From NCBI GenBank assembly GCA_965199855.1, contig OZ241326.1, positions 2,367,486-2,431,485 on the forward strand: a DNA stretch of 64,000 bases, in the 5' to 3' direction. This DNA is from a bacterium. GTDB taxonomy: Bacteria > UBA8248. The notes under the pieces are model-generated. The model did no database searches and was not told the DNA's origin. It worked only from the letters and a program-made list of their open reading frames with translations. Both the position numbers and the translations under genes were made by a program. Of this stretch, positions 4,451 to 45,178 are shown one piece after another (within the stretch, counting starts at the first letter, position 1; every line of letters starts with the position of its first letter).

Positions 4451-5083
4451 ATGAGCGCACTGAAAGAACCCATCGTCGTGGTGAAATACTCGGATTACAC
4501 GTGACCGTTCTGCTACGTCGCCACCGTGGGTGGCACGCCCGTGATCGAGGAAGACTCCGACGTGGTCGTCGAATGGGTCAGCTGGGAGGGCAGACCCCCC
4601 GGGCAGGATTTCGCCGGCTACACGCCCGAGCAGAAAAAAGAGAACTACGAGAACCACCACAAGCCTCTCGCCGAGAAATACGGCGTGCCGCTCCGCCCGG
4701 CGGGGGCGGACTACCGCACGACGGGCCTCCACATGGCCACCTACTACGCCCGGGACAAGGGAAAATTCAGGGAATTCCGGGATCGCTGCTACAAGGCGCG
4801 CTGGGTGGACGACCTCGACCTCGAGGACGCGGAGACCATCGCCGCGCTCGGCGAGGAGGTCGGCCTGGCCGGGCAGGAAATCAAGGCCGTCATCGCCGAG
4901 GGGCGCTACATCGGCGCCCTGCGCAGCCAGCGCGCCCAGGGCAAGGGTCTGGGCATTTTCGGAATCCCCACCTTCGTGGTGGAGGGCAAGCTCTTCTGGG
5001 GCAAGGACGTCATCGACGACGTGCGCGCCGAGGTCGCCCGCGTCCGGCGGGAGCGGCTCGAAAAGCAAGAGGAAGAGGGCTAG
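4451..5083 (+). CDS. DsbA-like thiol-disulfide oxidoreductase selenoprotein (UPFC active site), 210 aa including Sec
   Basis: The ATG at 4451 gives MSALKEPIVVVKYSDYT-TGA(4502-4504)-PFCYVATVGG..., continuing in frame into track ORF 4526..5083. The TGA sits exactly at the first Cys of the DsbA CPFC motif. A GC hairpin gccacc-gtg-ggtggc (4520-4534) lies 15 nt downstream of the TGA, consistent with a bacterial SECIS. The GIFGIPTFVV DsbA motif is present. Confidence 0.7.
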
Positions 5084-16553: not shown

Positions 16554-17246
16554 TTACTCCTGGCCCGCCGCCGCTCTCGACAGAATCTCCCGAAAGCCCT
16601 CATACACCGCTTCGCCGAAGGCGGGCGGAGGGCGGACTTCCGTCAGTTTTCCGCCCTCTATCGTCTTCTCGGATGCGTATGGGTTATGAACGGCCTCCCC
16701 GTTCGGGAGGATCAGGGTAGGGCTGGTCATCGGCAGGCCCTCCTCGTCCCGCAGACGCATGGCTTCCCGGCAGTCGTCCATCACGCCTTCCTCGTATGCG
16801 CCCGATTCCAGGTCCGCACGCACCCTGTCGGCGTCGAGGCCTGCCTCCCCGGCGATTTCGCAAAGAACCGACTGCTCATCCACCCGCCTGCCCTCGAAGA
16901 AAAAGCCGCGCCGTATAGCGAGGTCGAACGCGCGCGCCTTTTCCGGATCTTGCGTCCAGGCGCTCGCGCAGGCCTGAAAAGCGGGAATCGTGCTTCTCAC
17001 ATATTCGTCATGCGGCCAGCTTCTGCACGGGGCGAGCGGCTCCTGCACCGCCACCAGAGGCCACTCCTGATCCACGATGTGGCGAGGCGCCGGGCGGTCG
17101 TTGATGATTTCGAGGGGAAACGCGCGCCATTTGAGGCGCAGCTTCTCCCGGAAGGCGGGCATCACCCTGTCCAGCCGCGCCGCGGCCATATATGCCCAGG
17201 GTCAATGGTATTCGTGAAAAATTTCGACAACCGCCGGATTCGCCAT
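16554..17246 (-). CDS. DsbA/FrnE-like thioredoxin-fold selenoprotein (UPWA active site), 230 aa including Sec
   Basis: Minus-strand ATG at 17246-17244, with RBS GGAGG 7 nt upstream. It gives MANPAVVEIFHEYH-TGA(17204-17202)-PWAYMAAARLDRV..., in frame with track ORF 16554..17189. The TGA is at the first Cys of the DsbA-family CPWC motif, and the second position is Ala. Phase was verified base by base. Confidence 0.65.
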
Positions 17247-20032: not shown

Positions 20033-20182
20033 GCTTCCCTCCGCCCGGATGGCTGAAAATTCGATGGAAAATGCGGACCCCGCGTTATGGAATCGCTCCC
20101 CTCATCGTATAGAAGTATTTGCATCCCCTCAATCGTTCTCTTAGAGTATTCTTACGCCTTCCCCCCCGCTCTGGAGACCGTG

Positions 20183-20707
20183 ATGAAGCGAATCCGCATC
20201 CCCGTCATCGCCGCCGCCCTGGCGGCCGCCCTGTGGGCGATACATCCGGCGACCTCCTCGGGGCTCGGGCCCGGCGCGCCCGCCCCCGAACTGAAGGGCG
20301 GCCCCTGGCTGGGCGTCGAGAAGCCCCTTCAACTGAAGGAGCTGCGCGGCAAGGTCGTGCTTCTCGACATGTGGACGTTCGGCTGAATCAACTGCGTGCG
20401 GGAGATTCCCGCGCTGCGCTCGTGGCACGAGCGCTACGGGGACAAGGGGCTGGTCGTCATCGGAAACCACGCGCCCGAGTTCGGCTTCGAGAAGAGCAGG
20501 GCGAACGTGGAGAAGGCCATCGCCAAGCTCGGCATCGCCTACCCCGTTGTGATGGACAACGGGTTCGTCAACTGGAACGCCTACGGCAACCGCTACTGGC
20601 CGACGAAATACCTGATCGACAAGAAGGGAATCGTGCGCTTCAAGGCGATTGGCGAGGGGGGCCACGAGCGCGCCGAGGCGATGATCAAGAAGCTGCTCGC
20701 CGAGTGA
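20183..20707 (+). CDS. periplasmic thioredoxin-like (TlpA/redoxin-type) selenoprotein with a UINC active site, 174 aa including Sec
   Basis: Signal peptide [19 protein letters not shown], then ...[15 protein letters not shown](20384-20386)[10 protein letters not shown]... The TGA joins track ORFs 20087..20386 and 20396..20707, which share one frame. It aligns with TlpA WCxPCRxEMP as U-x-x-C. A hairpin gcggga-gat-tcccgc (20398-20412) lies 11 nt after the TGA. Confidence 0.65.
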
Positions 20708-20830
20708 TGGAGACGGAAAAGCGGGCGCGTGGTTCGGCGCGCCGCTTTATCTCTTCATCCGGGCGGGCCTCCTGCGGGGATGGCGGAGCGGACGCCTCTC
20801 GCCGAAGCGAAGCGTCGGGAGGTGAGCGCG

Positions 20831-21123
20831 TGAGCGAGCGCGAACGGGCGGAATTCACGCTTCCCACCCGGCTGGCGAGGCGCAGGCTCCTCGTGGGGAG
20901 GCTGGCGCTGGGCGTCGTCTGCGCCAACGCTCTTCTCGCTCTCGCCGCCGCATATCTGCTGAGCGGGCCGATGGCCTGGGCGACGAGCTTCCGGCTCGGC
21001 TTTCTCGGCTGGGCGGGCGTCCTGTTTCCCGCCTCCCTCATGCTGGCGGTTCCGGTGATGGCGCCTCTCGTCATCAGACTGCTGAAGCCGCCGACGGAGG
21101 AAGCGCCCGGAGAGCGAAAATGA
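20831..21123 (+). CDS. small hypothetical membrane protein (GTG start)
   Basis: RBS gggagg precedes a GTG start; two hydrophobic helices (LALGVVCANALLALAAAYLL, GWAGVLFPASLMLAVPVMAPLVI); only the C-terminal part of the Arg-rich 334-aa track ORF is retained. Confidence 0.35.
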
Positions 21124-21432
21124 AGGCGGGCGAGAAGCGAAAAAAAGACGCCGCGGGAAGCGCGCCTGCGTGGAGGGCTGGAGCGCGATTCGCCACTGGC
21201 GGGGGGCGAGCCTCGCCGACGAACGTGGGCTGGCAGCGCCCGAAGTTCCTCCGCTGCGTCTTCTTCACGAACGAGGACGCGGGCGGCTTCTCTGGGAGAA
21301 GCGGGACTACCCGCGCTGCTACGGATTCTGACCTAGAAGCCCCCCGGCGCGTCTTGACAACGCCCTCCCGCCGCCTTCATATAGAGGGGGAATTTCAGCG
21401 CAAGCCCCAGTCCCCATGAGGTCCCCTCTCGC

Positions 21433-21507
21433 TCCGGCGTAGCTCAACGGCAGAGCAATCGGCTGTTAACCGATGGGTTGTAGGTTCGAATCCTACCGCC
21501 GGAGCCA
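21433..21507 (+). tRNA. tRNA-Asn (anticodon GTT)
   Basis: Acceptor tccggcg/cgccgga, anticodon stem atcgg/ccgat with loop ctGTTaa, T-arm gtagg-ttcgaat-cctac, discriminator G, encoded CCA. Confidence 0.85.
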
Positions 21508-21577
21508 TGGGGGAGGGGGGCAACGGGCCGCCCATTGCAAGTTCTTGACTCCAAGACCGGCGAAAGGAGGCTTGACC

Positions 21578-23455
21578 GTGCTCTTTGCGGAAGCCAAAGA
21601 TAGGATCCGGAGCTGGATTCGCCGCCTTATCAAGTGGCTGACCAAGCCCGAATATCCCACAGAGGCACCCGAACCAATTCCATCGAACGAGGCAAGGCCG
21701 GAGACAACCCACATACTGGCGTCTCCCCCAACTACGGCATCGCCAAAGTCAGAACCGGCCTCTCCTTCCGACCCAGGCGAAGGCACCGACGCGGAACCCA
21801 AGACAACGGACGATTCAGCAAGCAAAGAAGAGCCCAAGAAAGAACCGCGCAAGATAGGACCGAGACGTATCAAGCCGGACAACAATCGCCAAAAACCAAA
21901 TCGCCCCGCACAACTCACCCGCCCCTTCACTCCCAGGGCGGAGTTGCTCTGCCGCCAAGCTCGGGGTTCATCCTGGGAGTTAATTCTGTCCGTTCCCGAA
22001 GAATGCGGCATTGTGAAAATACAACATGACAACAACCCCTTGTCAGTCGACGAAAACGGCGAATGTCGCCCGTCATCATTCTCCGGCACCCTGAAAGTTG
22101 AATACAGCGACGGAAAAACTGACGAGATTATCCCATTGGTCTGCGACAAGACGCCGCTGGTTTTTAAAATGCGGAACGGCTGGCAAGGGTCTGGCCGCAA
22201 AATTAGCGGAATTACTCGTGGGCACTTCATTGTTTTCACGCCTGCTGAATGGAAGCGAACGGGTCGCGTTCCGGTAGAAGCCGAGAACTGCGTGGACGCT
22301 GACTTCCGGGCGCACTACTTCCATGCGCGCAAGAACGACGCAAACGATGAAATTGGCGGATTTAAGGAATATGAAGTCCCGTTGACCCCAACCGGATTCG
22401 AGTTGGAAGGTACTAGAATTTTCGATGATTCTGAAGATGGGGAACTATTCGTTGATACAGTTCCAAGGGTGAAGCCCGCGTCCGGCATCGTCTGGGCGCG
22501 CGTGGGCGAAGAGCGGCAGAGAGGCTGGTCTGGAGAAAATTTCAGACCCGATGACAAATCTCTCAAGAAAGTTCTGAATGGCCGCCAGAGGCGATTTTAT
22601 GTCCGCGTCTATGACGACGCGCCCAAGTTGATGGACAGCGGCGAGTTCCGCTATTACGCGGATCTGCAAGATATTCAGGTGAATGGCGTATCGTATTCGC
22701 AGGACATGCTGTTGCTCCCCACGTCGGACGGGCATTCGCCAACAAGACTGCAATTCATTGCCCGGAATGGAGAGCTGATCTCCCAAGATCGGCTGGAATT
22801 GAAAGGAAACAACCCTCACGCGGCCATTACGCCAGATGGCGTTTTGACAATAGCCCCACACCCGGATGGCGATGAAATAACCTTAGTCTTAAAAGCCAAT
22901 ACAAGTAGCGTGGCCGTCAAGCTCCACTTGCCGCGCGTCTGGTGGAGGCTTGAGCGATCAGGAGAGGAGCCAAGCAGGTGGGGCGACCAACCCCTAAATA
23001 TGACGCGCGATGAGTTTCGAGATCGGGCCAATAAGAGCACCGTGATAAAATTGCGATTGCCTTCACGCATCAAATCTGCCGATGTGGGATTTGGTGATAA
23101 TCTGGACCGGAGACTTCCCATAGGGGACGGATTGCCACTTGGGAACTTTATCGATTATACGGAAATCGACAATCCATCAAGTGAAGAGGTCGAACTGCGA
23201 ATTCGATGCAATAGTGAAAGGCTAACTCTAATCCAACTTGCCGCTGACTTACCTGCCCCTACAAAGAAGCCTCTAACAAACAATATGCCAGACACTTGTC
23301 CAAGCGGCAACAAGGGATTCAGCTGCGGCGAATTGCGGAAGGCCAATCTCACAGCCGCCGATGCGAAACGCTTGCAATTACGTATCGACAGGCGACGCCG
23401 CAGCGAACACAATAGCAATATAGACAGGCTCATGGAGATTGGAAACGATGCCTGA
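21578..23455 (+). CDS. island protein A: 625-aa protein of unknown function (N-terminal amphipathic helix, Pro/Thr/Ser/Glu-rich linker, ~480-aa beta-rich C-terminal region)
   Basis: The track ORF starts inside the tRNA; the likely true start is GTG 21578, with GGAGG 8 nt upstream. The protein runs VLFAEAKDRIRSWIRRLIKWLTKPEY..., then a PTS/E-rich segment, then ...GHFIVFTPAEWKRTG... No nuclease, methylase, ATPase or other catalytic motif was recognised by eye. It overlaps gene B by 8 nt. Confidence 0.6.
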   Translation: MLFAEAKDRIRSWIRRLIKWLTKPEYPTEAPEPIPSNEARPETTHILASPPTTASPKSEPASPSDPGEGTDAEPKTTDDSASKEEPKKEPRKIGPRRIKPDNNRQKPNRPAQLTRPFTPRAELLCRQARGSSWELILSVPEECGIVKIQHDNNPLSVDENGECRPSSFSGTLKVEYSDGKTDEIIPLVCDKTPLVFKMRNGWQGSGRKISGITRGHFIVFTPAEWKRTGRVPVEAENCVDADFRAHYFHARKNDANDEIGGFKEYEVPLTPTGFELEGTRIFDDSEDGELFVDTVPRVKPASGIVWARVGEERQRGWSGENFRPDDKSLKKVLNGRQRRFYVRVYDDAPKLMDSGEFRYYADLQDIQVNGVSYSQDMLLLPTSDGHSPTRLQFIARNGELISQDRLELKGNNPHAAITPDGVLTIAPHPDGDEITLVLKANTSSVAVKLHLPRVWWRLERSGEEPSRWGDQPLNMTRDEFRDRANKSTVIKLRLPSRIKSADVGFGDNLDRRLPIGDGLPLGNFIDYTEIDNPSSEEVELRIRCNSERLTLIQLAADLPAPTKKPLTNNMPDTCPSGNKGFSCGELRKANLTAADAKRLQLRIDRRRRSEHNSNIDRLMEIGNDA

Positions 23456-26400
23456 AACTCGTGACATTGAGAGATGGGTTGATACGATTGGTGCTCGCTA
23501 CGAAAATTATTTGAAAACCTCGTTTTACTTCAAGGACTCGAAACTCCGTGAATCGTTTCAACATGCGTTACAGGGTGGCCGCCTGCTGAAAGGGCCTTTT
23601 CCCGAACCGGCGCGCGACTTCAAAAAAGGCGTAGACGCGAGGCAACTGGCGAAAGAATGTTTTCCTGACAGGGGCGGCGCTCTACTTCCGGCATTACGGA
23701 AAGGCGCTTTGTATGTCCATCAAGAGCGCGCCGTGCGTTGTACTCACACAGACCAGCGGAACATCGTGGTCGCCACCGGTACCGCCAGCGGCAAGACGGA
23801 GAGTTTTCTCTACCCGATTCTGTTCGAGTTGTACCGCCAATACTTGGCGGGAGAACTCAGCGAGCCCGGCGTGCGGGCCATGATCCTGTATCCGATGAAC
23901 GCGCTCGCCAACGATCAAAGAGAACGCCTTGGCGAAATTTGCGAGCAGCTACGCAAGGAGGGTTCAGATTTTGCCCCCATTTTCGGACAGTACATCGGAC
24001 AAACACCCGAAGATCAAAGAGACCGTCGGCGTAACGCCTCTACTCGGGAAGAGGAACGCCTGCCCGGCGAGTTGGTTTTCCGGGAAGAGATGCGGAACAA
24101 TCCGCCGCATATCCTGCTGACCAATTATTCCATGCTGGAATACCTTCTTATTCGTCCGAGCGACAGCCCGCTTTTCGACGTAGACCGAGGCAAACACTGG
24201 CAATTCATCGTGCTTGATGAAGCTCACCAGTACCGGGGCGCCAAAGGGATGGAGATGGGCATGTTAATCCGGCGTCTCAAGCAACGGTTGCGCGATGGAG
24301 GGCGCGAAGATCGTTTCCGCTGCATCGCCACCAGCGCGACCATCGCCACCGGCGAAGGCGAAGAAGACAAACAGGTCGTCGCGAAATTCGCCGAGGAACT
24401 CTTTGCCGAGCCTTTTCGGACATCCGGCATCATTTTGGGAGAACACGAACAACAGTCACTCAAAAAGGAGCCGCGTCGCTTCCATGCGTTCGCGCGCGCC
24501 TTGGAAGGGGCTTTTTTGCTCCATGATGACGGTGAGGATGCGGTCATCCTCAATCGCAAGAGAGAGGTTGGGTGCCGCGCCGAGCCCTTGGAAATCGCGT
24601 TATGCCGGGAATGCGGACAACACTATTACGTCGGCCGGGAAAATGATGGCAAGTTGAAAGAAGCGGTGCGAGATCCCAGTCATCCGAAATTTGGCGTGGA
24701 TTATTACCTGCCATTGGAAAGCGATAATGCCGCTTCTCATGTCTTATGCCGATGCTGCGGCCAACTCTCCGCCGACGGGTCTGCTTGCGATTGCGGCGAC
24801 AGCGCCTCAATTCTCGTCAAGAAGTGCGAATCTCATAAAGAACATCCGGATCACCTGAAGAAATGCGAAGCCTGCGGCTATAGCCGCGGCGGCATCGGCG
24901 ACCCTGTTCAGGAAATCGTGCACGGCTCCGACGGCCCCAACACCGTCATCGCGACCGCCCTTCACGAGTTGCTACCGGAAAGCAGGCGCAAGGTGCTGGC
25001 GTTCGCCGACAGTCGGCAGGAGGCCGCGTTCTTCGCCTGGTATGCTCAGGACTCCTATACGGAGGTACGCGACCGCAATTTGATGTTGCGCGCTTTGAAG
25101 GCTGGGGCAATCGATTCTGAAGGACTGTCCATTGACGACCTCAAAAACCGACTGTTCAAACAGTGGGAACAGTCTGGTCTGTTTGAGAGAGCGGATACCA
25201 GGGAAAGCAAGGACCGAAAGGTGCTGACGGCAATCCTCGGAGAAGCGTTGACGGACGAGAAGAGGCTGTCCTTAAGTGGAGTCGGTTTGGTCAGGTGGTT
25301 CGTCAAAATCCCGGACGACTTGAGACCGCCGGCCTCAATGCTGGAGCCGCCTTGGAATCTAACGGATGAAGAAGCGCGCCGCCTTCTCGCATATCTTTTA
25401 GACGAGTGGCGTGTGCGCTACGCCTTGGCTTTGCCGGACGGTGCAGGGACCCCGTTATGGAACGACGTATCACCCCTGCGGCGGCAACAGGCTTACGGTC
25501 TGGGCACCCCCGGCAAAAGAAAAAACATCGCAGAATGGGGCAGCTCCCAATCCGCAATCGTTGGTCACTTCCTGCGCCGGCTCCTTATGCGAAATGGACA
25601 GTCCGGCAATGACGACCATTCACAATCGATCATGCTGATGAAGGATGTATGGAGCGCATTGCGCGAGCGGGATAAAAAATATGGCCAAAAAGCCGACCAA
25701 ATTCTTTCGTCCGCTAACACAAACGGGACATTCCGCCTCAACTCGCGCTGGCTGCGGACCAAGCTCGCCGAGCCATCTGAAATTTGGGAGTGCGACACGT
25801 GCGCAAGCCTGAGCACCCACAACATTCACAACATCTGTCCTCGAAACGGATGCCCCGGAAATCTGTCGCCTGCCGGCCAATCACGGCTTGAAGAAAACCA
25901 CTATCGAATCCTTTACGAAAAACCCGGCCTGCCACCCACGCTATGCGCTGAAGAACATACGGCTCAAATCGAAAGCAGCGAGGCGCGCCAGAGACAGGAT
26001 CGCTTCAAAAGCGGACAAATACACCTCCTCAGTTCCTCAACCACGTTTGAGGTTGGCGTCGACTTGGGCGATCTCGAGGTCGTATTCCTCCGCAACGTGC
26101 CGCCGGAGCCGTTCAACTATACCCAGCGCGTCGGGAGGGCGGGACGCCGAGAAACGCCGGGATTGGCGCTGACCTACTGCCGCCGCAACCCACATGACTT
26201 GTACCACTACGAAGACCCGGAAAAGCGCGTGATAGAGGGAAAGGTGCAACCCCCAAGGCTCCGGATGACCAACGACAAAATCATCTCCCGGCACATGGCC
26301 GCCGTCGCTCTGTCCGCATTTTTCAAGAATGAGGGAAACGAGGAACGCTTCAGGAATGTCGAATCCTTCATCGGCGATTGGGAGAATCCTCGCGCCGTTT

Positions 26401-27716
26401 CGGACCTGAAGCAGTTTTGCGAAAACAACGAGGCGTTGAAGAATTCGCTACTCCGGAGCGTGCCGGAAGCCATGCGCGAAACAACCGGACTCAACAGCAA
26501 TGATTGGATTAAAATCATCGCCGGCCCGGACAGCCGCCTTGACCGAGCCGAGAAAGAAGTTTCCGACGACTATCAGCGCATGGAAGCGCTTGAAAAAGAG
26601 TACTCGGACAACAGCAAATATAGCGACGCGAAACGTATCAAGCAACGGAGGGATACCATCGCTAACGAACAAACCTTGACCTTCCTCTCACGCAAAGCCG
26701 TAATTCCCAAATATGGCTTTCCGGTTGACGTGGTGGAACTCGATACCCGGGAACTCGATACCCGGCCGCAAAACAGAAGTTCGGCAAGAGTATCGTTGCA
26801 AAGAGACCTGTCTCAAGCCATTGCCGAATATGCGCCGGGCGGTAAAGTCGTGGCGAACAAGCAAGAGTGGGAATCATGCGGTGTAAAAGTAATTTCCGGA
26901 AAGCAATTTCCGGTCAAGCGTTACGCTTACGACGATGCCCGCTATTTTCAGCAATGTGATGAAGAGGGCAATCTTCCAAACAGCAGAAGCAGAAGATACC
27001 TTTCTCCGGTCTTCGGTTTCGTGACACCGCTATTTGAGAAACCCAAGAAGCCGCGGGGACGAGCGCAACGCCTATACACAACACGACCGTTTTTTCCGGG
27101 TTTTGATGAAGAACCGGAATCCAAGGACCTGTTCGGGATTACGGTAACAAAAGCGCAACCGGGAAGCTTGGTCATCCTGTGCGAGGGGCGGAATCAGAAA
27201 GGGTTCTATATTTGCCGCACTTGCGGAAGCCACATGACGAAGCCAGCGAGCGCGCACAAGACGCCGGCAGGATCCAAATGTACCGAGAGATTAGAGAAAT
27301 TTTCGCTCGGGCACGAGTTGGTTACGGATGTAGTGCGCCTGCAATTTTCAGACTTGGGCGACCAGTGGGACGCTTACTCCCTCGCTTACGCCATACAGCT
27401 GGGCGCGTCGAAAACAATGGATGTGCCGGACACGGACTTGAACGTCACTATCACTGGCGACAAAGCATCGGACGAGACGGCGATTGTCTTATATGACAAT
27501 GTTCCCGGCGGTGCCGGTCTGGTGGCGCAGTTGGAACACGAGGGTATATTTCGAGAAATGCTCGGCAATGCCCGAGAACGGGTACAAGGCGGATGTGGCT
27601 GTGACTCAAGTTGCTACGGTTGTCTGCGCAGCTACCGCAACCAGTTCGCGCACCCGCACTTGAATCGCAAAAGAGCTCAAGCCTTTTTACCCGCCGTAGG
27701 CGTCGGGGCGGAATAG
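23448..27716 (+). CDS. island protein B: large DExH-box SF2 helicase with a Zn-ribbon insertion and C-terminal DUF1998/MZB Cys4 domain (DruE/MrfA/DrmA-like)
   Basis: The track start at 23439 is TTG; ATG 23448 gives MPETRDIERW... Motif I VVATGTASGKTESF, Ia ILYPMNALANDQ, II VLDEAHQY, III ATSATI, VI QRVGRAGRRETPG. An insertion between the RecA-like halves carries four CxxC pairs (LCRECGQHYY..., CRCCGQ, CDCGD, CEACGY). The C-terminus CRTCGSH...C..GGCGCDSSCYGCLRSYRNQFAHPHL matches the DUF1998 signature. Confidence 0.85.
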   Translation: MPETRDIERWVDTIGARYENYLKTSFYFKDSKLRESFQHALQGGRLLKGPFPEPARDFKKGVDARQLAKECFPDRGGALLPALRKGALYVHQERAVRCTHTDQRNIVVATGTASGKTESFLYPILFELYRQYLAGELSEPGVRAMILYPMNALANDQRERLGEICEQLRKEGSDFAPIFGQYIGQTPEDQRDRRRNASTREEERLPGELVFREEMRNNPPHILLTNYSMLEYLLIRPSDSPLFDVDRGKHWQFIVLDEAHQYRGAKGMEMGMLIRRLKQRLRDGGREDRFRCIATSATIATGEGEEDKQVVAKFAEELFAEPFRTSGIILGEHEQQSLKKEPRRFHAFARALEGAFLLHDDGEDAVILNRKREVGCRAEPLEIALCRECGQHYYVGRENDGKLKEAVRDPSHPKFGVDYYLPLESDNAASHVLCRCCGQLSADGSACDCGDSASILVKKCESHKEHPDHLKKCEACGYSRGGIGDPVQEIVHGSDGPNTVIATALHELLPESRRKVLAFADSRQEAAFFAWYAQDSYTEVRDRNLMLRALKAGAIDSEGLSIDDLKNRLFKQWEQSGLFERADTRESKDRKVLTAILGEALTDEKRLSLSGVGLVRWFVKIPDDLRPPASMLEPPWNLTDEEARRLLAYLLDEWRVRYALALPDGAGTPLWNDVSPLRRQQAYGLGTPGKRKNIAEWGSSQSAIVGHFLRRLLMRNGQSGNDDHSQSIMLMKDVWSALRERDKKYGQKADQILSSANTNGTFRLNSRWLRTKLAEPSEIWECDTCASLSTHNIHNICPRNGCPGNLSPAGQSRLEENHYRILYEKPGLPPTLCAEEHTAQIESSEARQRQDRFKSGQIHLLSSSTTFEVGVDLGDLEVVFLRNVPPEPFNYTQRVGRAGRRETPGLALTYCRRNPHDLYHYEDPEKRVIEGKVQPPRLRMTNDKIISRHMAAVALSAFFKNEGNEERFRNVESFIGDWENPRAVSDLKQFCENNEALKNSLLRSVPEAMRETTGLNSNDWIKIIAGPDSRLDRAEKEVSDDYQRMEALEKEYSDNSKYSDAKRIKQRRDTIANEQTLTFLSRKAVIPKYGFPVDVVELDTRELDTRPQNRSSARVSLQRDLSQAIAEYAPGGKVVANKQEWESCGVKVISGKQFPVKRYAYDDARYFQQCDEEGNLPNSRSRRYLSPVFGFVTPLFEKPKKPRGRAQRLYTTRPFFPGFDEEPESKDLFGITVTKAQPGSLVILCEGRNQKGFYICRTCGSHMTKPASAHKTPAGSKCTERLEKFSLGHELVTDVVRLQFSDLGDQWDAYSLAYAIQLGASKTMDVPDTDLNVTITGDKASDETAIVLYDNVPGGAGLVAQLEHEGIFREMLGNARERVQGGCGCDSSCYGCLRSYRNQFAHPHLNRKRAQAFLPAVGVGAE

Positions 27717-28010
27717 CCGAAAACACTTTCATTGAGGTTCGTTGGGCGGCTTTTTCGAATTGCAACGCCCCCCTAGTCCCGGCGGTAGCCCCGGCATTTG
27801 GCGAGGATGGCGCCGTCGCGCGAGAACCACTCGGCGGTGAAGCCCGTCCCCTTGGGCAGAAACTTCACCAGGAGCAGGCCCTCGCTCCTGCCGCGCCGCC
27901 AGCGATACCACGAGCCCCTGGAGTCCCGCCCGTCCAGTTTGAGTCCCGTCCTCTTGAGGCGGCTGCCCTGGATGAAGCCCTCCTTCTCCCGGAAGCCGGC
28001 GGCGATGCCC

Positions 28011-38520: not shown

Positions 38521-39397
38521 CCCCCGGGAATTCCTCCTCGACGCGCAGGTCGCGCTCGTCGTGGCCGGCGAAGAGGAGGCCGGGGGAGGCCGCCATGTCC
38601 TTCACGGCGTCCAGGGCGCGCAGGGCGTCGTCCACGTGGACGTGGACGCCCGGCGGAATCATCGACTCGAAGCTGCGGTAGAGACAGGCCGCGTCCACCG
38701 CCAGCGCCGCCCAGCCCCCCTTCGCCCGGAAGCGGACGACCTGGAGGCCGGGCGTGTGCCCGCCCACCCGGTGGAGGCGGACGCCGTCGGCGATTTCCGC
38801 CTCGCCGTCCACGAGCTCCAGGCGGCCCGCCTCCAGCAGCCGCTCGGCTTCCGCCAGATCGCCCAGAAAATGGTTGAGGAAGTGGTATGCGCCCGCGTCG
38901 CTCCGCCAGAAGTCGAGCTCGCGCCTCTGGAGCCAGAACCGCGCGGAGGAGAACAGCCGGGGCGAGGCGAAATGATCCCAGTGCAGGTGGCTCACGACGA
39001 GCCGCTCCACCTCCGAGGGTCTGAGTCCGAAATGCGCGAGAAGCTCCCGCTGGGAGCGGTAGCCCTCGTAGTCGGGATTGCGCGCCCGCTGCGCCTCCTC
39101 GCCGAAGCCGGTGTCCACCACCACGGGCGCGCCGCCCCCCTCGGGCATGAGCAGCCAGAAGAAGTAGGGCAGCCGCCGCGTCCGCCCCGACTCGCTCAGA
39201 TACAGCAGCCAGGAGGCGTCGCACCGACGCCAGCCCTGGCACAGGGCGTAGAGCCGCCAGGTCGCCTCGCGCAAGATGCGGTCCTCCCCCTTTTGTTGTC
39301 CGCGCCCGCCGATTATGCCATTATTTTCGAGGACGCGAACTTCTACGGCCCGGACAACCGCGAACCACCCCCGAAGGGCGCCTGTCTTGGACAACAT
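38504..39397 (-). CDS. MBL-fold metallo-hydrolase (AHL-lactonase-like)
   Basis: HLHWDH (HxHxDH) zinc motif in VVSHLHWDHFAS. The N-terminal start is uncertain; the annotated Met of the track ORF would overlap mrpA. Confidence 0.7.
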   Translation of the reverse strand: MLSKTGALRGWFAVVRAVEVRVLENNGIIGGRGQQKGEDRILREATWRLYALCQGWRRCDASWLLYLSESGRTRRLPYFFWLLMPEGGGAPVVVDTGFGEEAQRARNPDYEGYRSQRELLAHFGLRPSEVERLVVSHLHWDHFASPRLFSSARFWLQRRELDFWRSDAGAYHFLNHFLGDLAEAERLLEAGRLELVDGEAEIADGVRLHRVGGHTPGLQVVRFRAKGGWAALAVDAACLYRSFESMIPPGVHVHVDDALRALDAVKDMAASPGLLFAGHDERDLRVEEEFPGVRRLA

Positions 39398-41732
39398 CCT
39401 CATCGCCGTGTTCTTCCCGTTTCTGGCGGCGCTCATCGTCCCCCGGTTCGCCGCGCGATTCCGCCGGCGCGCCGCGTGGTTCGCCATGGCGGCGCCCCTC
39501 GCAAGCCTCGGGGCGCTGCTCTCCCTCTACGGCGAATGGGCGGCGGGGGGCGGGAAGACCCTCGTCCGCCCCCTCTCCTGGGTGCCGGCGGCGAACGTGG
39601 AAGTCTCCTTCATGACGGACGGCCTGAGCCTCATGTGGGGCTTTCTGGTGGCGGGCATGGGCGCGCTCATCGTCCTCTATTCGCATTGGTATCTCCCCGA
39701 AGACGAGGCGCTCGGGCGCTACTACGGCTTTCTGCTCGCCTTCATGGGGTCGATGCTCGGGGTGGTGTTCTCGGATCACCTGCTCTCGCTCTTCATCTTC
39801 TGGGAGCTGACGAGCGTCACCTCGTTCTTCCTCATCGGCTTCTGGTCGGAGCGCGGCGCCTCGAACTACGGCGCGGCCAAGGCGATTCTCATCACCGGAA
39901 GCGGGGGGCTCGCCATGCTGGGGGGCTTCCTGCTCCTGGGCGAGGCGGCGGGCGAGTGGCGGCTCTCGCGGCTCATCCTCACGCCCGACGCGGCCGCGAA
40001 GGTCTCCCTGGGCGTCTTCCTGCTCATCATCCTGGGGGCGGCGACCAAGAGCGCGCAGTGGCCCTTCCACATCTGGCTGCCGAACGCCATGGAGGCGCCC
40101 ACGCCCATCAGCGCCTTCCTGCACTCGGCGACGATGGTGAAGGCGGGGGTCTATCTGCTCTCGCGCTTCTACCCGATTCTGGGGGCGCACCCCGCCTGGG
40201 GCTACGTCGTGACGGGCTTCGGCATGACGACGATGATCGCGGGCGGCCTGCTCTCCCTGCGCGCCCATGACCTCAAGGCCATCCTCGCCTACGGGACGAT
40301 CAGCCAGCTGGGCCTCCTCGTCACCTTCCTGGGCTACGGGGGGCGGGGCGCCGTCGTGGGCGCGACGCTCCACCTCTACAACCACGCGGCGGCGAAGGCG
40401 GCGATGTTCATGACGGTGGGCGTCATCGACCACGAGGCGGGCACGCGCGACGCGCGGCTGCTGGGGAACCTGCGGAAGCTCATGCCGAAAACCCACCTCC
40501 TCGCGCTCCTCGCCGCGCTCAGCCTCATCGGCGTCCCGCCCCTGGGCGGCTTCATCACCAAGGAGATGCTCTACGAGGCGAGCCTGCGCCCCGGAGGCCC
40601 GGGCGCGTGGGGCTGGTTCTGGCCCTGGCTCACCGTTCTGGCGGGCGCGTTCACCGCGCTCTATCACCTGCGCTTTCTGGGCGAGCCCTTCTGGCGGGCG
40701 GCCGAGGGGGAGGCGCCGAAGCGCCCGCACGACCCGCCCTGGGGGATGCTCGCCGCCCCCGCCGCCCTCGCGCTCCTCGCGCTCGCCTTCGGCCTGGCGC
40801 CGTGGATCATCCAGGACGCCCTCGTCGCGCCGGCGGCGGAGGCGACCCTGGGCGGAGGCGCGCGGCTCGACCTCCGCCTGGGTCTCTGGCACGGGGTGAA
40901 CGCGCCCCTGCTCATGTCTGTCCTCACCATGGCGCTGGGCACCGCGCTCTACTTCGGCTTCGCGCGCGTGAAGGCGCTGCTCGACGCCTCGGCGCGCGCG
41001 TGGGGGAGCGCCCCCGCTCCCGACAGAATATACGACGCCTGCATCGGCTGGATGCGCGGCGGGGCGCGGGAGATCCTCCTCCTCCTCCAGGACGGGAACC
41101 TGAGAAGATACATGCGCTGGACGATGGCGGCCCCCGCCGTCCTCGTCCTGGGCGTCGTCTGGCCGATGCGCTGGGGGGAGAGCGTCTTTCCCCGGACGCT
41201 CGAGGGCGTCTCGCCCCTCCTCGTCGTGATCGCGGCGATGATCGCGGCCTCCGCCCTCGCCACGGCGCTCTTCCGGCGGCGCATCCCGGCGATTCTCTCC
41301 CTCGGCGTGATGGGCTATTCCATCTCGGGGCTGTATCTGCTCCTCAAGGCGCCGGATCTGGCGCTCACCCAGATCATGGTCGAATCGGCCTCGGTCGCGC
41401 TGTTCCTGCTCGTGTTCCGGCGCCTGCCCGAGCTCGAACCCGTCCCCTCCTCCCCCGCCAGAAAGGCGCGGGACTGGGGAATCGCCGCCGCCCTGGGCGC
41501 CTTCACGGCGCTGGGCATGGCCGCCGCCATGAACGCGCACCACTTCCGGACGATCGCGGACTACTTCATGCGCACGAGCAAGCCGGTCGCCGGCTTCAAG
41601 AACGTGGTGAACGCGATCATCGTCGACTACCGCGGCTACGACACGCTGGGGGAGATTACCGTGCTCGTCATCGCGGGCATCGCCATCTACGCCCTCACGC
41701 GGCTGACGGGGGGGGTTCGATGGGATCACTGA
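39383..41732 (+). CDS. mrpA: Na+/H+ antiporter subunit MrpA/MnhA (with fused MrpB-like domain)
   Basis: NuoL-like multi-TM protein ([28 protein letters not shown]). Start uncertain (TTG 39383 proposed); the track ORF begins upstream in a GC-rich leader. Confidence 0.8.
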
Positions 41733-42157
41733 TTCTCCAGACGGTCGCGCCCGTCGTCCTCCACCTGACGCTCCTGTTCTCGCTCTTTCTGCTCCTCTAC
41801 GGCCACAACCAGCCGGGGGGCGGCTTCATCGCGGGGCTGATGACGGCGGTGGGCGTCATCCTCCAGTGGGTGGCGGTGGGCGCGGAGGAGGGCCGGCGGC
41901 GCTTCCACTGGCCCTACGAGACGATTTTCCTGCTCGGGCTGGCGCTCTCCACCCTCACGGGCCTGTGGGGCTATCTCAAGGGGGCGTATCTCAAAAGCTC
42001 GATCTACCGCTTCGTCCTGCCGTTCATCGGCGAGGCGGAGCTGTTCACCGCGTTTCTGTTCGACGTAGGAGTCTATGGCGTGGTGGTCGGGGTGGTGATG
42101 TCCATCCTCACCAACCTGTGCCCGCCGCCGGAGGGGACGAACCCCCAGGGGCGGTGA
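41720..42157 (+). CDS. mrpB: Na+/H+ antiporter subunit MrpB/MnhB
   Basis: The ATG at 41720 overlaps the mrpA stop; 145-aa membrane protein ([40 protein letters not shown]). Confidence 0.75.
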
Positions 42158-42228
42158 CGCCCGCGGGGGGCGGAGCTTCCGGCGTCCGCCCGCCCCGCCG
42201 GACGAGAAGAAGCGGAGGAGGAAGGGCC

Positions 42229-42579
42229 ATGGTCTGGACGCTGGCGGCGACGATAGGCGCGCTGGTCGCGGTCGCCTCCTATCTCATCATGCAGCGCAGA
42301 ATCATCCAGGTCGTGCTGGGCATGTCGGTGCTCAGCCACGCCGCGAACCTGATGATCGTCGCCTCCGGCTGGGTGGGGGACGGAAAAGCCCCCATCGTCC
42401 CCAAGAAGGAGGGCTTCCTCGACCCGTTCCTCTACGTGGACCCCCTGCCCCAGGCCATGGTGCTGACCGCCATCGTCATCAGCCTCGCGGTGACGGCGTT
42501 CCTGCTCGTCCTCGCGCTCTTCGCCTACCGCAGGTTCGGGACGGACGACATCGACAAAATCAGGAGGCTCAGGGGATGA
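42229..42579 (+). CDS. mrpC: Na+/H+ antiporter subunit MrpC/MnhC (NuoK-like)
   Basis: MVWTLAATIGALVAVASYLIMQRRIIQVVLGMSVLSHAANLMIV. Confidence 0.8.
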   Translation: MVWTLAATIGALVAVASYLIMQRRIIQVVLGMSVLSHAANLMIVASGWVGDGKAPIVPKKEGFLDPFLYVDPLPQAMVLTAIVISLAVTAFLLVLALFAYRRFGTDDIDKIRRLRG

Positions 42580-44051
42580 GCGCCCTCTTCCCCCTGCTCG
42601 TCGTCTGGCCGCTCGCCACGGGCGTCGTTCTCTTCCTCGTCCGCAAAAGGCGCGCCCTCCAGGAGAGCCTGAGCCTCCTCTCGCTGCTGGCGAACCTGAT
42701 GCTGGCCGTCGCGCTCCTGAGCGCCACGGCGGACGGGACGATATTCGTCCACAGGATGGGGCTGTGGCCCTTCCCCTACGCCATCGTTCTCGCCGCCGAC
42801 CGGCTCGCCGCCACGCTCCTGTGCCTCTCCGCCTCCATCGTGGGGGCGTGCGCCGTGTTCGCCGGAAGCTACCTCACCGACGAGCAGCGCAGGGAGGCCT
42901 TCAGCCCCCTGCTGCATTTTCTCCTGATGGGGATGCAGGGCTGCTTCATCACGGGCGATCTGTTCAACCTGTTCGTCTTCTTCGAGGTCATGCTCATGGC
43001 CACCTACGCGCTGCTCGGCTTCCACTACAGCCTCGACCAGCTCGAGATGGCCTTCAAATACGTCTGCCTGAACCTCATCGCCTCGGCCCTGTTCCTGATC
43101 GGCGTCTCGCTGCTCTACGCCCAGACGGGCACGGTGAACATGGCGGACCTCGCCGGGAAAATCGCGCTCCTGGGCCCCACGCCCCTCGTCGTGGCGACCG
43201 CCCTCGTCTTCATCTTCACGTTCAGCGTCAAGGCGGCCATCTTCCCCATGCACCTGTGGCTGCCCTCGGCGCATTCGATATCGCCCACCCCCGTCAGCGC
43301 CATCCTGGCGGGCGCGCTCGTCAAGGTGGGCCTCTACGCCGTCATCCGGTGCGCCACGCTCATCTTCCCGGCCGCGTTCCTGGAGCTCCAGCCGGGCCTC
43401 ATCGCCCTCGGGCTGTGCACCATCGCCATGGGCGCGCTCGGCACCCTCTCGCAGACGAGCCTGAAGCGCATCCTCGCCTACAGCACCATCAACCAGCTCG
43501 GCTACATCGCCTTCGCGGTCGCCCTGCTCTCGCAGGCGGGGCTGGCGGCGGCGGTCTTCTACATCGCCGCCCACGCCTACCTGAAAAGCGCGTTGCTGCT
43601 GGGGGCGGGCCTCAGCCAGAAGCTCACCGGCACGGTGGACCTCGAGGAGATGGGCGGCATGATGGGCAAGGCGCCCTTCGCCAGCCTCCTGATGCTCGTG
43701 GGCTTCCTCTCCCTGGCGGGCTTCCCGCCCTTCGCGGGCTTCTTCGCCAAGCTCTTCGTTCTGCAGGCGGGGTTCGCGCAGGGGGCGACCCTCGCGACGG
43801 GCGTCGCCCTGGGGTTCGGCGTCATATCGCTCTACTACAACTTCACGACCTATCAGCGCTACGCCTGGGGAACGGGCGGAGGCGAGGTCGCCGCGGCGTC
43901 TCCCGCCCTCTACGGGGCCGCGGCCTTTCTCTCCGCCTTCGCGGTCATCTTCGGGGCGGGCGCGTTCTGGCTCTTCGAGTGGGCGCAGCTCGTGGCCGCC
44001 CAGATCACGAGGCCGGAGCTCTACGTCGCCGCCATGCGGCAGGCCGGATAG
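42576..44051 (+). CDS. mrpD: Na+/H+ antiporter subunit MrpD/MnhD (NuoN/M-like)
   Basis: 491-aa multi-TM protein with AIFPMHLWLPSAHS; its start overlaps the mrpC stop. Confidence 0.85.
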   Translation: MSALFPLLVVWPLATGVVLFLVRKRRALQESLSLLSLLANLMLAVALLSATADGTIFVHRMGLWPFPYAIVLAADRLAATLLCLSASIVGACAVFAGSYLTDEQRREAFSPLLHFLLMGMQGCFITGDLFNLFVFFEVMLMATYALLGFHYSLDQLEMAFKYVCLNLIASALFLIGVSLLYAQTGTVNMADLAGKIALLGPTPLVVATALVFIFTFSVKAAIFPMHLWLPSAHSISPTPVSAILAGALVKVGLYAVIRCATLIFPAAFLELQPGLIALGLCTIAMGALGTLSQTSLKRILAYSTINQLGYIAFAVALLSQAGLAAAVFYIAAHAYLKSALLLGAGLSQKLTGTVDLEEMGGMMGKAPFASLLMLVGFLSLAGFPPFAGFFAKLFVLQAGFAQGATLATGVALGFGVISLYYNFTTYQRYAWGTGGGEVAAASPALYGAAAFLSAFAVIFGAGAFWLFEWAQLVAAQITRPELYVAAMRQAG

Positions 44052-44062
44052 GAGAACAGCGG

Positions 44063-44536
44063 ATGCCGCTCGCCGCCCTCGCCCTCGTCATCGCCGCCCT
44101 GTGGATCTTCCTTCACGGCAGCGCCACGCCCGGGCGCTTCTTCGTGGGCCTCGTCATGGCCGCCCTCATCATCGGCTTTCTGAGAAAATCCTGCTACGAG
44201 GAGCGGACGTTCCTGCGGCTCGGCAGCTACGCCCGATACCTGAGAAGCTTCGCCTGGGAGCTCCTCGCGGCGAATCTGCAGGTTCTGAGAATCGTCCTAA
44301 GCCCCCGGCTGTCGATTCGCCCGGGCATCATCTCCTACCGGACGGTCTGCAGGACGCCCCTGGGGGTGACGATGCTGGCCAACTCCATCACCCTCACCCC
44401 CGGAACGCTGAGCGTGGACGTGTCCGAGGATCACGCGACGATCTTCGTCCACACCCTGGACATCGACCACCCCGACGAGGTCGCCGCCGGCATCCGGGAG
44501 GGGCTGGAGCGCCCCATCGCGGGAGCGGTGGAATGA
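44063..44536 (+). CDS. mrpE: Na+/H+ antiporter subunit MrpE/MnhE
   Basis: MPLAALALVIAALWIFLHGSATPGRFFVGLVMAALIIGFL...TLTPGTLSVDV. Confidence 0.75.
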   Translation: MPLAALALVIAALWIFLHGSATPGRFFVGLVMAALIIGFLRKSCYEERTFLRLGSYARYLRSFAWELLAANLQVLRIVLSPRLSIRPGIISYRTVCRTPLGVTMLANSITLTPGTLSVDVSEDHATIFVHTLDIDHPDEVAAGIREGLERPIAGAVE

Positions 44537-44802
44537 TCGCCGCCGCCGTCCAGATCAGCCTCGTCATGCTGGGCCTCTCGGTGGCGCTGGCGTTCGTCCG
44601 CCTCGTCAAGGGCCCCACGACCTCCGACCGCGTCGTGGCCGCCGACGCCATCGCCACGAACGTGCTGGGCGTCATCGCCCTCTACGCGATACAGACGGGC
44701 AACGGCCTGTTCATCATCGCCGCCCTCGCCCTGGCGATTCTGAGCTTCGTGGGGACGACGGCGTACGCGAAGTTCCTGGAGAGGGGGAGAATCATTGAGT
44801 GA
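44533..44802 (+). CDS. mrpF: Na+/H+ antiporter subunit MrpF/MnhF
   Basis: MIAAAVQISLVMLGLSVALAFVRLVKGPTTSDRVVAADAIATNV; overlaps the stop of mrpE. Confidence 0.75.
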   Translation: MIAAAVQISLVMLGLSVALAFVRLVKGPTTSDRVVAADAIATNVLGVIALYAIQTGNGLFIIAALALAILSFVGTTAYAKFLERGRIIE

Positions 44803-45178
44803 GGCCCTCGCCTGCGCCCTCCTGCTCATCGGCGCGTTCTTCATGCTGGTGGCGAGCGTCGGGCTTCTGCGCCTGCCGGACGTCTATTGCCGGATGCACG
44901 CCGCCACCAAGGCGACCACCTTCGGAATGCTCGGCATCCTCCTGGGGGCGAGCCTCGTGTTCCAGAGCGCGGCCGTGACGACGCAGGCGCTCCTCGCCGT
45001 CTTCTTCCTGTTCCTGACCGCCCCCGTCGCCGCGCACCTCATCTCGCGCGCCGCCTACAAGCGCGGCCCCGACCTTTGCCCCGAGACCACGCACGACGAA
45101 TACGGCGAATACCTCAGGAAGCGAGAGGGCGCGGCCGGGGAGGAGGAAGCCGGCGGCGAGGGGCGGGAAAGCCCTTGA
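44795..45178 (+). CDS. mrpG: Na+/H+ antiporter subunit MrpG/MnhG
   Basis: MSEALACALLLIGAFFMLVASVGLLRLPDVYCRMHAATKATTFG. Confidence 0.8.
   Translation: MSEALACALLLIGAFFMLVASVGLLRLPDVYCRMHAATKATTFGMLGILLGASLVFQSAAVTTQALLAVFFLFLTAPVAAHLISRAAYKRGPDLCPETTHDEYGEYLRKREGAAGEEEAGGEGRESP

Follow-up and report, generated by a model that had tools for sequence, protein, structure and literature searches.

Thioredoxin-like domains with a W-x-[FY]-x-C-I-N-C active-site block are known from the human protein NHLRC2, from SOQ1 of Arabidopsis, from YkuV of Bacillus subtilis and from the C-terminal domain of Mycobacterium tuberculosis DipZ, and the substrates of the DipZ/NHLRC2-type domains are poorly known. 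The same block is encoded at positions 20183-20707 (forward strand) of the stretch analysed here, the 64,000 nucleotides (nt) from position 2,367,486 to 2,431,485 of contig OZ241326.1 (assembly GCA_965199855.1, a bacterium of the UBA8248 lineage), hereafter the window. An in-frame TGA takes the place of the first cysteine codon of the block, and we read 20183-20707 as a single gene encoding selenocysteine (Sec, U) at that TGA, with a probability of about 0.88. Prokaryotic selenoprotein catalogues already hold thioredoxin-fold UxxC redoxin families, which have in common with this gene the Pfam families (PF00578/PF08534), the UxxC motif type, a Sec insertion sequence (SECIS) in the coding region directly downstream of the UGA, and the existence of Cys homologues. 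That the gene is a further member of this catalogued kind is well supported, the match being one of Pfam family, motif type and SECIS position and not of reference sequences.

The closest described structures are the DipZ domain (PDB 2hyx, 5cyy), NHLRC2 (6gc1), SOQ1 (7djj) and YkuV (2b5x). Besides the active-site block, the window protein has the H-x-P-E-[FY] motif and the Y-W-P cis-Pro region of the DipZ-type domains and, as predicted from its signal peptide, the extracytoplasmic location of DipZ. The DipZ-type domains have Cys at the first position of the motif, whereas the window protein has Sec, and it stands alone behind a signal peptide while DipZ is fused to a CcdA-type membrane domain and NHLRC2 and SOQ1 to NHL repeats. 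TlpA, ResA and CcmG (DsbE) belong to the same superfamily, with an exported reductant role and CxxC chemistry, but the similarity is weak; the window protein lacks their WCxPC motif as well as a cytochrome c maturation or Sco/CoxB gene context. Regarding the RNA, the bacterial SECIS (bSECIS) of the Escherichia coli fdhF type is likewise a coding-region hairpin just 3' of the UGA, with 16-37 nt from UGA to loop, although it has no sequence similarity to the hairpins of the window. The clade of the window, formed by the window and its seven closest species-level relatives (L001-L007), uses two adjacent hairpins (H1 and H2), whereas most of the family uses one, AUUCCCUC-GUU-GAGGGAAU, placed 26 nt after the UGA. 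The features of the gene are as follows, all on the forward strand.

20173-20176, forward strand: Shine-Dalgarno-like GGAG, 6 nt 5' of the ATG at 20183 (direct reading of the sequence).
20183-20707, forward strand: predicted complete selenoprotein coding sequence, 174 codons plus a TGA stop (Pfam, 2hyx, full-length conservation in L001-L005).
20183-20257, forward strand: predicted Sec-type (secretory) signal peptide with MKRIR n-region, hydrophobic core and cleavage site (sequence and aligned relatives).
20384-20386, forward strand: UGA probably read as selenocysteine, residue 68, at the nucleophilic first-Cys position of CxxC (alignment, conservation).
20393-20395, forward strand: TGC, putative resolving Cys (C71) of U-I-N-C (invariant column).
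20394-20414, forward strand: H1, stem of 8 bp interrupted by a single bulged C, AGAU loop (GAU in the window's own minimum free energy (MFE) fold), -16.3 kcal/mol.
20416-20434, forward strand: H2, perfect 8-bp stem with a GGC loop, candidate auxiliary or alternative SECIS, -12.4 kcal/mol.
20600-20602, forward strand: conserved cis-Pro candidate codon in W139-P140-T (invariant W139 and P140; YWPA of DipZ).
20705-20707, forward strand: true stop codon, TGA (clade homologues all end ...LLAE* here).

The gene runs in a single frame from its ATG to its stop, with the TGA at 20384-20386 as the only interruption. A first-pass annotation, made from the window's letters alone, had proposed that this TGA joins two open reading frames (ORFs), as is indeed the case, since ORFs 20087..20386 and 20396..20707 both lie in the frame of the ATG at 20183. 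The G+C content at third codon positions (GC3) was 0.90 5' of the TGA and 0.95 3' of it, so both sides look coding, and under a strict filter that demanded coding-like GC3 on both sides the TGA at 20384 ranked first among the in-frame TGAs of the 64-kb window. For profile matching the stop was replaced by Cys. The resulting protein matched Pfam AhpC-TSA (PF00578) with 50.6 bits (cutoff 26) over residues 31-153 and Redoxin (PF08534) with 39.9 bits (cutoff 26.6). The best match among solved structures was the C-terminal thioredoxin-like domain of M. tuberculosis DipZ (E 1.2e-44), in which residues 32-172 of the query align to residues 55-198 of 2hyx with about 50% identity over 141 residues. The thioredoxin-like domains of NHLRC2, SOQ1 and YkuV came next, and those of ResA and TlpA were much weaker (E of only 2e-5 for the TlpA structure 1jfu). 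When aligned with DipZ, the TGA falls on the first Cys of its C-I-N-C active site, within a block W-T-F-G-[U/C]-I-N-C that here reads U68-I-N-C71. The columns C68, C71 and W139-P140 were invariant across 29 Cys-type homologues, and the W139-P140 region aligns to the YWPA of DipZ, where a cis conformation is presumed.

The first-pass annotation had aligned the TGA to the WCxPC motif of the TlpA family. The superfamily held, given the Pfam matches and the alignment to the first Cys of a CxxC; the WCxPC subfamily gave way to a DipZ-type CINC (E 1e-44). The NCBIfam TlpA equivalog model scored 31.6 bits against a cutoff of 230, with no WCxPC present, and the ResA model 65.8 bits against a cutoff of 170. 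By sequence similarity, the protein is a TlpA-like thioredoxin-fold redoxin of the DipZ-C/NHLRC2/YkuV-type subfamily and not a WCxPC TlpA. A fusion to a CcdA/DsbD-type membrane domain is absent, as the 174 codons begin with a signal peptide only, and no CcdA gene lies within ±10 kb; therefore, it is a homologue of the DipZ thioredoxin-like domain and not of the DipZ protein. No NCBIfam selenoprotein model covers the redoxin, the best being WAxxUGC_long with 38 bits against a cutoff of 300. The N-terminus, with a basic MKRIR, about 15 hydrophobic residues and a site A-T-S/S-G (the slash marks the cleavage point; the aligned relatives L002-L005 have A-G-A/S and A-R-A/S), looks like a cleavable signal peptide and makes an exported location reasonable.

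The conservation of the TGA was followed in a protein-based scan with one genome per species, which gave 42 loci. TGA stands at codon 68 in all seven of the closest species-level genomes (71-89% identity), which include a Candidatus Tectomicrobia and a Nitrospinaceae metagenome-assembled genome, and TGC or TGT stands there in all 31 more distant genomes, mostly Chloroflexota. A degenerate DNA pattern for M-W-T-F-G-TGA-x-N-C was found in at least 120 metagenome contigs, and the matches listed comprise 116 distinct sequences, all of them full-length homologous ORFs; the counts for Sec-type genes given below rest on these listed matches. Sec-type and Cys-type proteins form pairs with 80-89% identity, and the two forms interleave. 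In six assemblies of the window's own species, codon 68 is TGA and the Sec region is identical. The 20 codons 5' of the TGA differ from those of the relatives mostly by synonymous changes, which indicates that this segment is translated. In every public assembly examined, the gene is split into a product of 67/99 amino acids and another of 103, as anticipated by the first-pass annotation when it called such genes an annotation pitfall.

The RNA downstream of the TGA has the properties of a SECIS. A hairpin gcggga-gat-tcccgc had been reported in the first-pass annotation 11 nt after the TGA; it is there (20398-20412), but as the core of the longer H1, which is the larger functional candidate and is followed by a second hairpin, H2. 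A bSECIS is described by a loop of 3-9 nt, a G at loop position 1 or 2, a distance of 16-37 nt from the UGA and an MFE of -7.5 kcal/mol or lower (PMC13188914), and H1 and H2 each satisfy all four. The UGA-to-loop spacing is 16-17 nt for H1 and 37 nt for H2, the latter being the upper limit of the model. The stability of the hairpins after the UGA gave z = -3.2 in dinucleotide shuffles. In addition, the 57 nt after the UGA in the window fold with -27.8 kcal/mol, compared with -15.8 ± 3.4 kcal/mol for 1000 synonymous recodings that follow the codon usage of the window (z = -3.5), and the RNA was more stable than its recodings in all eight members of the clade (z from -2.7 to -3.9).

The pairing of both hairpins is conserved in the clade. 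Across the eight genomes, 99.2% of the pair cells of H1 and H2 are standard pairs, with 100% of cells paired in H2. Three pairs show changes on both sides, all at synonymous third positions: a compensatory G-C to C-G in H1 (L006/L007) and, in H2, a C-G to U-A by way of U-G and a G-C to C-G. The observed covariation score was reached by 1 of 500 shuffles, and in slid registers pairing fell to 34-62%. L121, the sole other sequence of the subtype (marked by NHAPEF) to which the window and L001-L007 belong, has a hairpin at the H1 position and no equivalent of H2. Since H2 lies at the spacing limit and L121 lacks it, we favour H1 as the SelB-binding SECIS, perhaps together with H2. A role of H2 as the sole SECIS was considered and judged less likely on the same two grounds.

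In the wider family, one dominant hairpin was found in 94 of the 117 Sec-type sequences folded, the window being one of the 117. Its loop, in AUUCCCUC-GUU-GAGGGAAU, starts 26 nt after the UGA. The window and L001-L007 lack it and have H1 and H2 instead. The dominant hairpin is formed by the codons of I-P-S-L-R-E-W, of which TCG, TTG and AGG are near-fixed in Sec-type genes (101/103, 100/103 and 81/84, respectively); Cys-type genes encode the same residues with mixed codons and fold more weakly (-9.1 against -13.3 kcal/mol in the Sec-type, p = 1e-6). Two of its stem pairs covary, U-A in 69 and C-G in 29 sequences for one and C-G in 85 and U-A in 19 for the other, with a Fisher p of about 1e-18; such Fisher p-values overstate the evidence, as the sequences are related by descent. 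GUU forms the loop in 102 of 109 sequences. The pairing also couples a synonymous change in Pro to an amino acid replacement, CCU occurring with AAG (Lys) and CCC with AGG (Arg). The Cys-type gene of L013 keeps a near-intact copy of the family hairpin (AUUCCCUCGUUGAAGGAAU), 72 nt from its TGT codon, which suggests a recent conversion from Sec to Cys.

The gene neighbourhood in the relatives links the redoxin to molybdenum enzymes of the MsrP kind. In L001-L007 the redoxin is followed on the same strand by a gene for a membrane protein of the cytochrome b561 type (PF01292), with overlap of its ATG and the redoxin stop (TGATG), a conserved 93-amino-acid ORF with two transmembrane (TM) segments, a molybdopterin oxidoreductase (PF00174) with a twin-arginine (Tat) signal, and a tRNA-Asn. 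The best NCBIfam match of the oxidoreductase is MsrP with 73 bits, below its cutoff of 207. Of the 85 loci with enough flanking sequence, 42 have a homologue of this molybdenum enzyme immediately 3' of the redoxin in the same orientation (27 of 56 Sec-type, 15 of 29 Cys-type), and no locus has it on the opposite strand. A bona fide MsrP (459 bits) adjoins the redoxin in L013 (Cys) and in L066 (Sec), and L013 also has MsrQ (167 bits). These linkages tie the redoxin family genomically to periplasmic methionine-sulfoxide repair. The redoxin-msrP linkage was seen in Chloroflexota-like and other lineages (L008-L168; for example, 6462-8160 in L013), and the neighbours in L066 lie 3' of its TGA at 492-494.

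Several points weigh against our reading of the gene. The clade alignment consists of 8 sequences with 93% column identity, and its power to reveal covariation is limited; moreover, the preference for H1 over H2 is tentative. No Rfam SECIS family matched, either in the whole window at the gathering threshold or in 20300-20520 at E values up to 10, where only sub-threshold chance matches such as sbcD and RAGATH-24 appeared; it must be noted that this is weak evidence, as bacterial SECIS elements are poorly modelled in Rfam. ARAGORN found no tRNA-Sec in the 64-kb window or in the 168 fetched loci, and neither Pfam searches of 20 further ORFs nor the gene table showed selA, selB or selD in the window; these three genes did not turn up in any of the fetched loci either. 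The ±10 kb around the gene hold no CcdA/DsbD-type reductant gene. Furthermore, three deletions relative to L001 (6525-8618) have removed the cytochrome b561 gene, of which about 860 bp are missing, and most of the MsrP-like gene, so that the window does not hold an MsrPQ-type module but remnants of one at 20707-21420, and the present role of the gene is less clear than in its relatives. The remnants are the following.

20707-21123, forward strand: operon remnant, the start of the cytochrome b gene (TGATG overlap) fused in frame to the two-TM ORF 20830-21123.
21166-21420, forward strand: decayed fragments of the MsrP-like molybdopterin oxidoreductase, a gene intact in L001-L007.

These deletions, which are found in the same state in all assemblies of the species, raise the possibility that the gene is a genuine selenoprotein gene but an orphaned relic here, its ancestral job lost with the cytochrome b and molybdenum enzyme partners. 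However, the six assemblies carry identical, intact copies of the redoxin ORF, including its TGA and both hairpins, and about half of the family has no molybdenum enzyme as neighbour, so the redoxin does not strictly depend on it. We consider a relic unlikely.

A second explanation is that the UGA is read through without Sec, by near-cognate Trp or Cys insertion or by a local recoding independent of SelB. In its favour, no component of the Sec machinery was seen in the window or the fetched loci, and readthrough can also be promoted by RNA structure behind a stop codon. Nevertheless, codon 68 falls on the catalytic Cys of the motif, a classic Sec/Cys pair, and the active site would not survive a Trp or Gly in its place. 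Spacing, stem length and the G in the loop agree with the bSECIS model, TGAs in redox motifs occur three times in the one window, and UGA also terminates this same gene, which speaks against reassignment. Readthrough without Sec is thus quite improbable. As for a reassignment of UGA in the whole genome (codes 4 or 25), it was ruled out, since the gene itself, with a terminator shared by the clade homologues, and its neighbours end in TGA.

It could also be argued that the gene once encoded a Cys-type redoxin and that its TGA arose by nonsense mutation or by an error of assembly, in view of the split made by the public gene callers and of the decay of the linked downstream genes in the window's species. 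This would hardly be compatible with the same TGA in seven other species-level genomes, in six independent assemblies of the species and in the 116 distinct metagenome sequences listed, nor with an intact frame, a GC3 of at least 0.9 on both sides, mostly synonymous substitutions 5' of the TGA and a conserved RNA structure 3' of it, and we regard a pseudogene as extremely unlikely.

Equally remote is a pair of genes, a 67-amino-acid secreted peptide ending at the TGA of 20384 and a 103-amino-acid protein from the GTG at 20396, for although this GTG lies 9 nt after the TGA and is the start used by the gene callers, it has no Shine-Dalgarno sequence 5' of it (GGAG precedes the ATG at 20183), its equivalent is start-capable in only 5 of the 116 Sec-type genes among the matches listed (CTC in L006; CAG, CGC or AAG in others), and the split would cut the thioredoxin fold at the active site, the two halves aligning contiguously to one DipZ domain. 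The first-pass annotation had named homologues starting at this GTG, and the lack of a SECIS, as observations that would overturn its proposal. What was found is an upstream segment conserved as protein in the homologues and a SECIS-like structure that is present, conserved and covarying.

Taking the gene as one that encodes Sec, a mechanism can be proposed. Its product would be exported and, once the signal peptide has been cleaved, would be a thiol-disulfide oxidoreductase with a thioredoxin fold and about 150 residues. UGA-68 would be decoded by a SelB-type factor with Sec-tRNA(Sec), recruited by H1 and possibly helped by H2. The Sec, in the solvent-exposed nucleophilic position of U-I-N-C, would make the attack on a disulfide or a sulfenic acid in the substrate, after which Cys71 would resolve the intermediate, leaving an intramolecular selenenylsulfide to be reduced again by a membrane electron donor. 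Judging from the genomic tie to MsrP/MsrQ-type repair enzymes, the likely role is the repair or reduction of oxidised envelope proteins. More tentatively, periplasmic repair modules of the MsrPQ type could have the (U/C)INC redoxin as a third, dedicated component, with a linkage across several phyla, a proposal that we consider possible but less likely than not. In that case, the redoxin might reduce sulfenylated or disulfide-bonded envelope proteins alongside MsrP, or keep MsrP or its substrates reduced. Sec may have been selected repeatedly for its resistance to irreversible over-oxidation by HOCl or H2O2. In the clade of the window, both the SECIS architecture (two hairpins for one) and the partners (cytochrome b561 and a divergent molybdenum enzyme for MsrQ and MsrP) may have been swapped.

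The value of the gene lies mainly in annotation; it is an ordinary member of its kind and leaves the knowledge of selenoproteins in general unchanged. A family model and a Sec-aware re-call of genes would correct many records of a family that occurs in at least 120 metagenome contigs. The family is also a clean example of frequent switching between Sec and Cys, and of a SECIS rebuilt within coding sequence, whose pairing constrains codon choice and, in places, amino acids, while the MsrP/MsrQ linkage provides a starting point for testing what DipZ/NHLRC2-type thioredoxin-like domains do. Only two aspects appear mildly new, the exchange of the SECIS in the window's clade and the linkage to MsrPQ. 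No description of the former was found in the literature searched, whose coverage was limited; neither was an MsrPQ-redoxin linkage or a Sec-containing redoxin of the DipZ type described there, which, with the same limited coverage, is weak evidence of novelty.

Two other candidate selenoproteins are present in the window, both DsbA-like. The strict GC3 scan gave the TGA at 20384 only, and those at 4502 and 17202 were found by direct reading of the frames, having escaped the scan because they lie close to the N-terminus. The first, at 4451-5083 (forward strand), belongs to the DSBA family (Pfam, 92 bits); its TGA 4502-4504 lies in ...KYSDYT-U-PFCY..., a UxxC motif, and it has a hairpin some 10-30 nt after the UGA. 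The second, at 16554-17246 (reverse strand), matches Pfam DSBA with 52 bits and has TGA 17202-17204 in ...EIFHEYH-U-PWAY...; its motif is U-P-W-A and not UxxC, and it resembles the form catalogued as 'DsbA-like form 2 (xxUP)'. L001-L007 and the assemblies of the window's species all keep the TGA at 17202, and a hairpin GGCCGCG-GCG-CGGCU about 18 nt after it is conserved in the same eight genomes. Together with 20384, the TGAs at 4502 and 17202 (reverse strand) span 15.9 kb, in agreement with the three thiol-disulfide candidates within 16 kb proposed by the first-pass annotation, and three candidate active-site TGAs in so short a distance are difficult to explain without Sec decoding. The Sec-rich redox proteome that the first-pass annotation drew from them goes beyond what 64 kb of a genome can show.

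Beyond the remnants of the operon and the tRNA-Asn (21433-21507), a low-GC island extends from 21508 to 27800, with 52-57% GC compared with 65-70% in its flanks. It carries a 1,425-amino-acid DruE-like helicase (PADLOC DruE, E about 3e-154; Pfam DEAD, Helicase_C and MZB), preceded by an ORF of about 600 amino acids that could not be annotated, and it probably represents a defence island of the Druantia type that inserted at the tRNA-Asn. In other assemblies of the same species, this site is occupied by HNH, HicAB or DUF6998 genes. Finally, an apparently unrelated cluster for a multisubunit cation:proton antiporter of the Mrp/Mnh type was located at 39276-45178 (forward strand), with two Proton_antipo_M matches, MbhD/MbhE and PhaG_MnhG.

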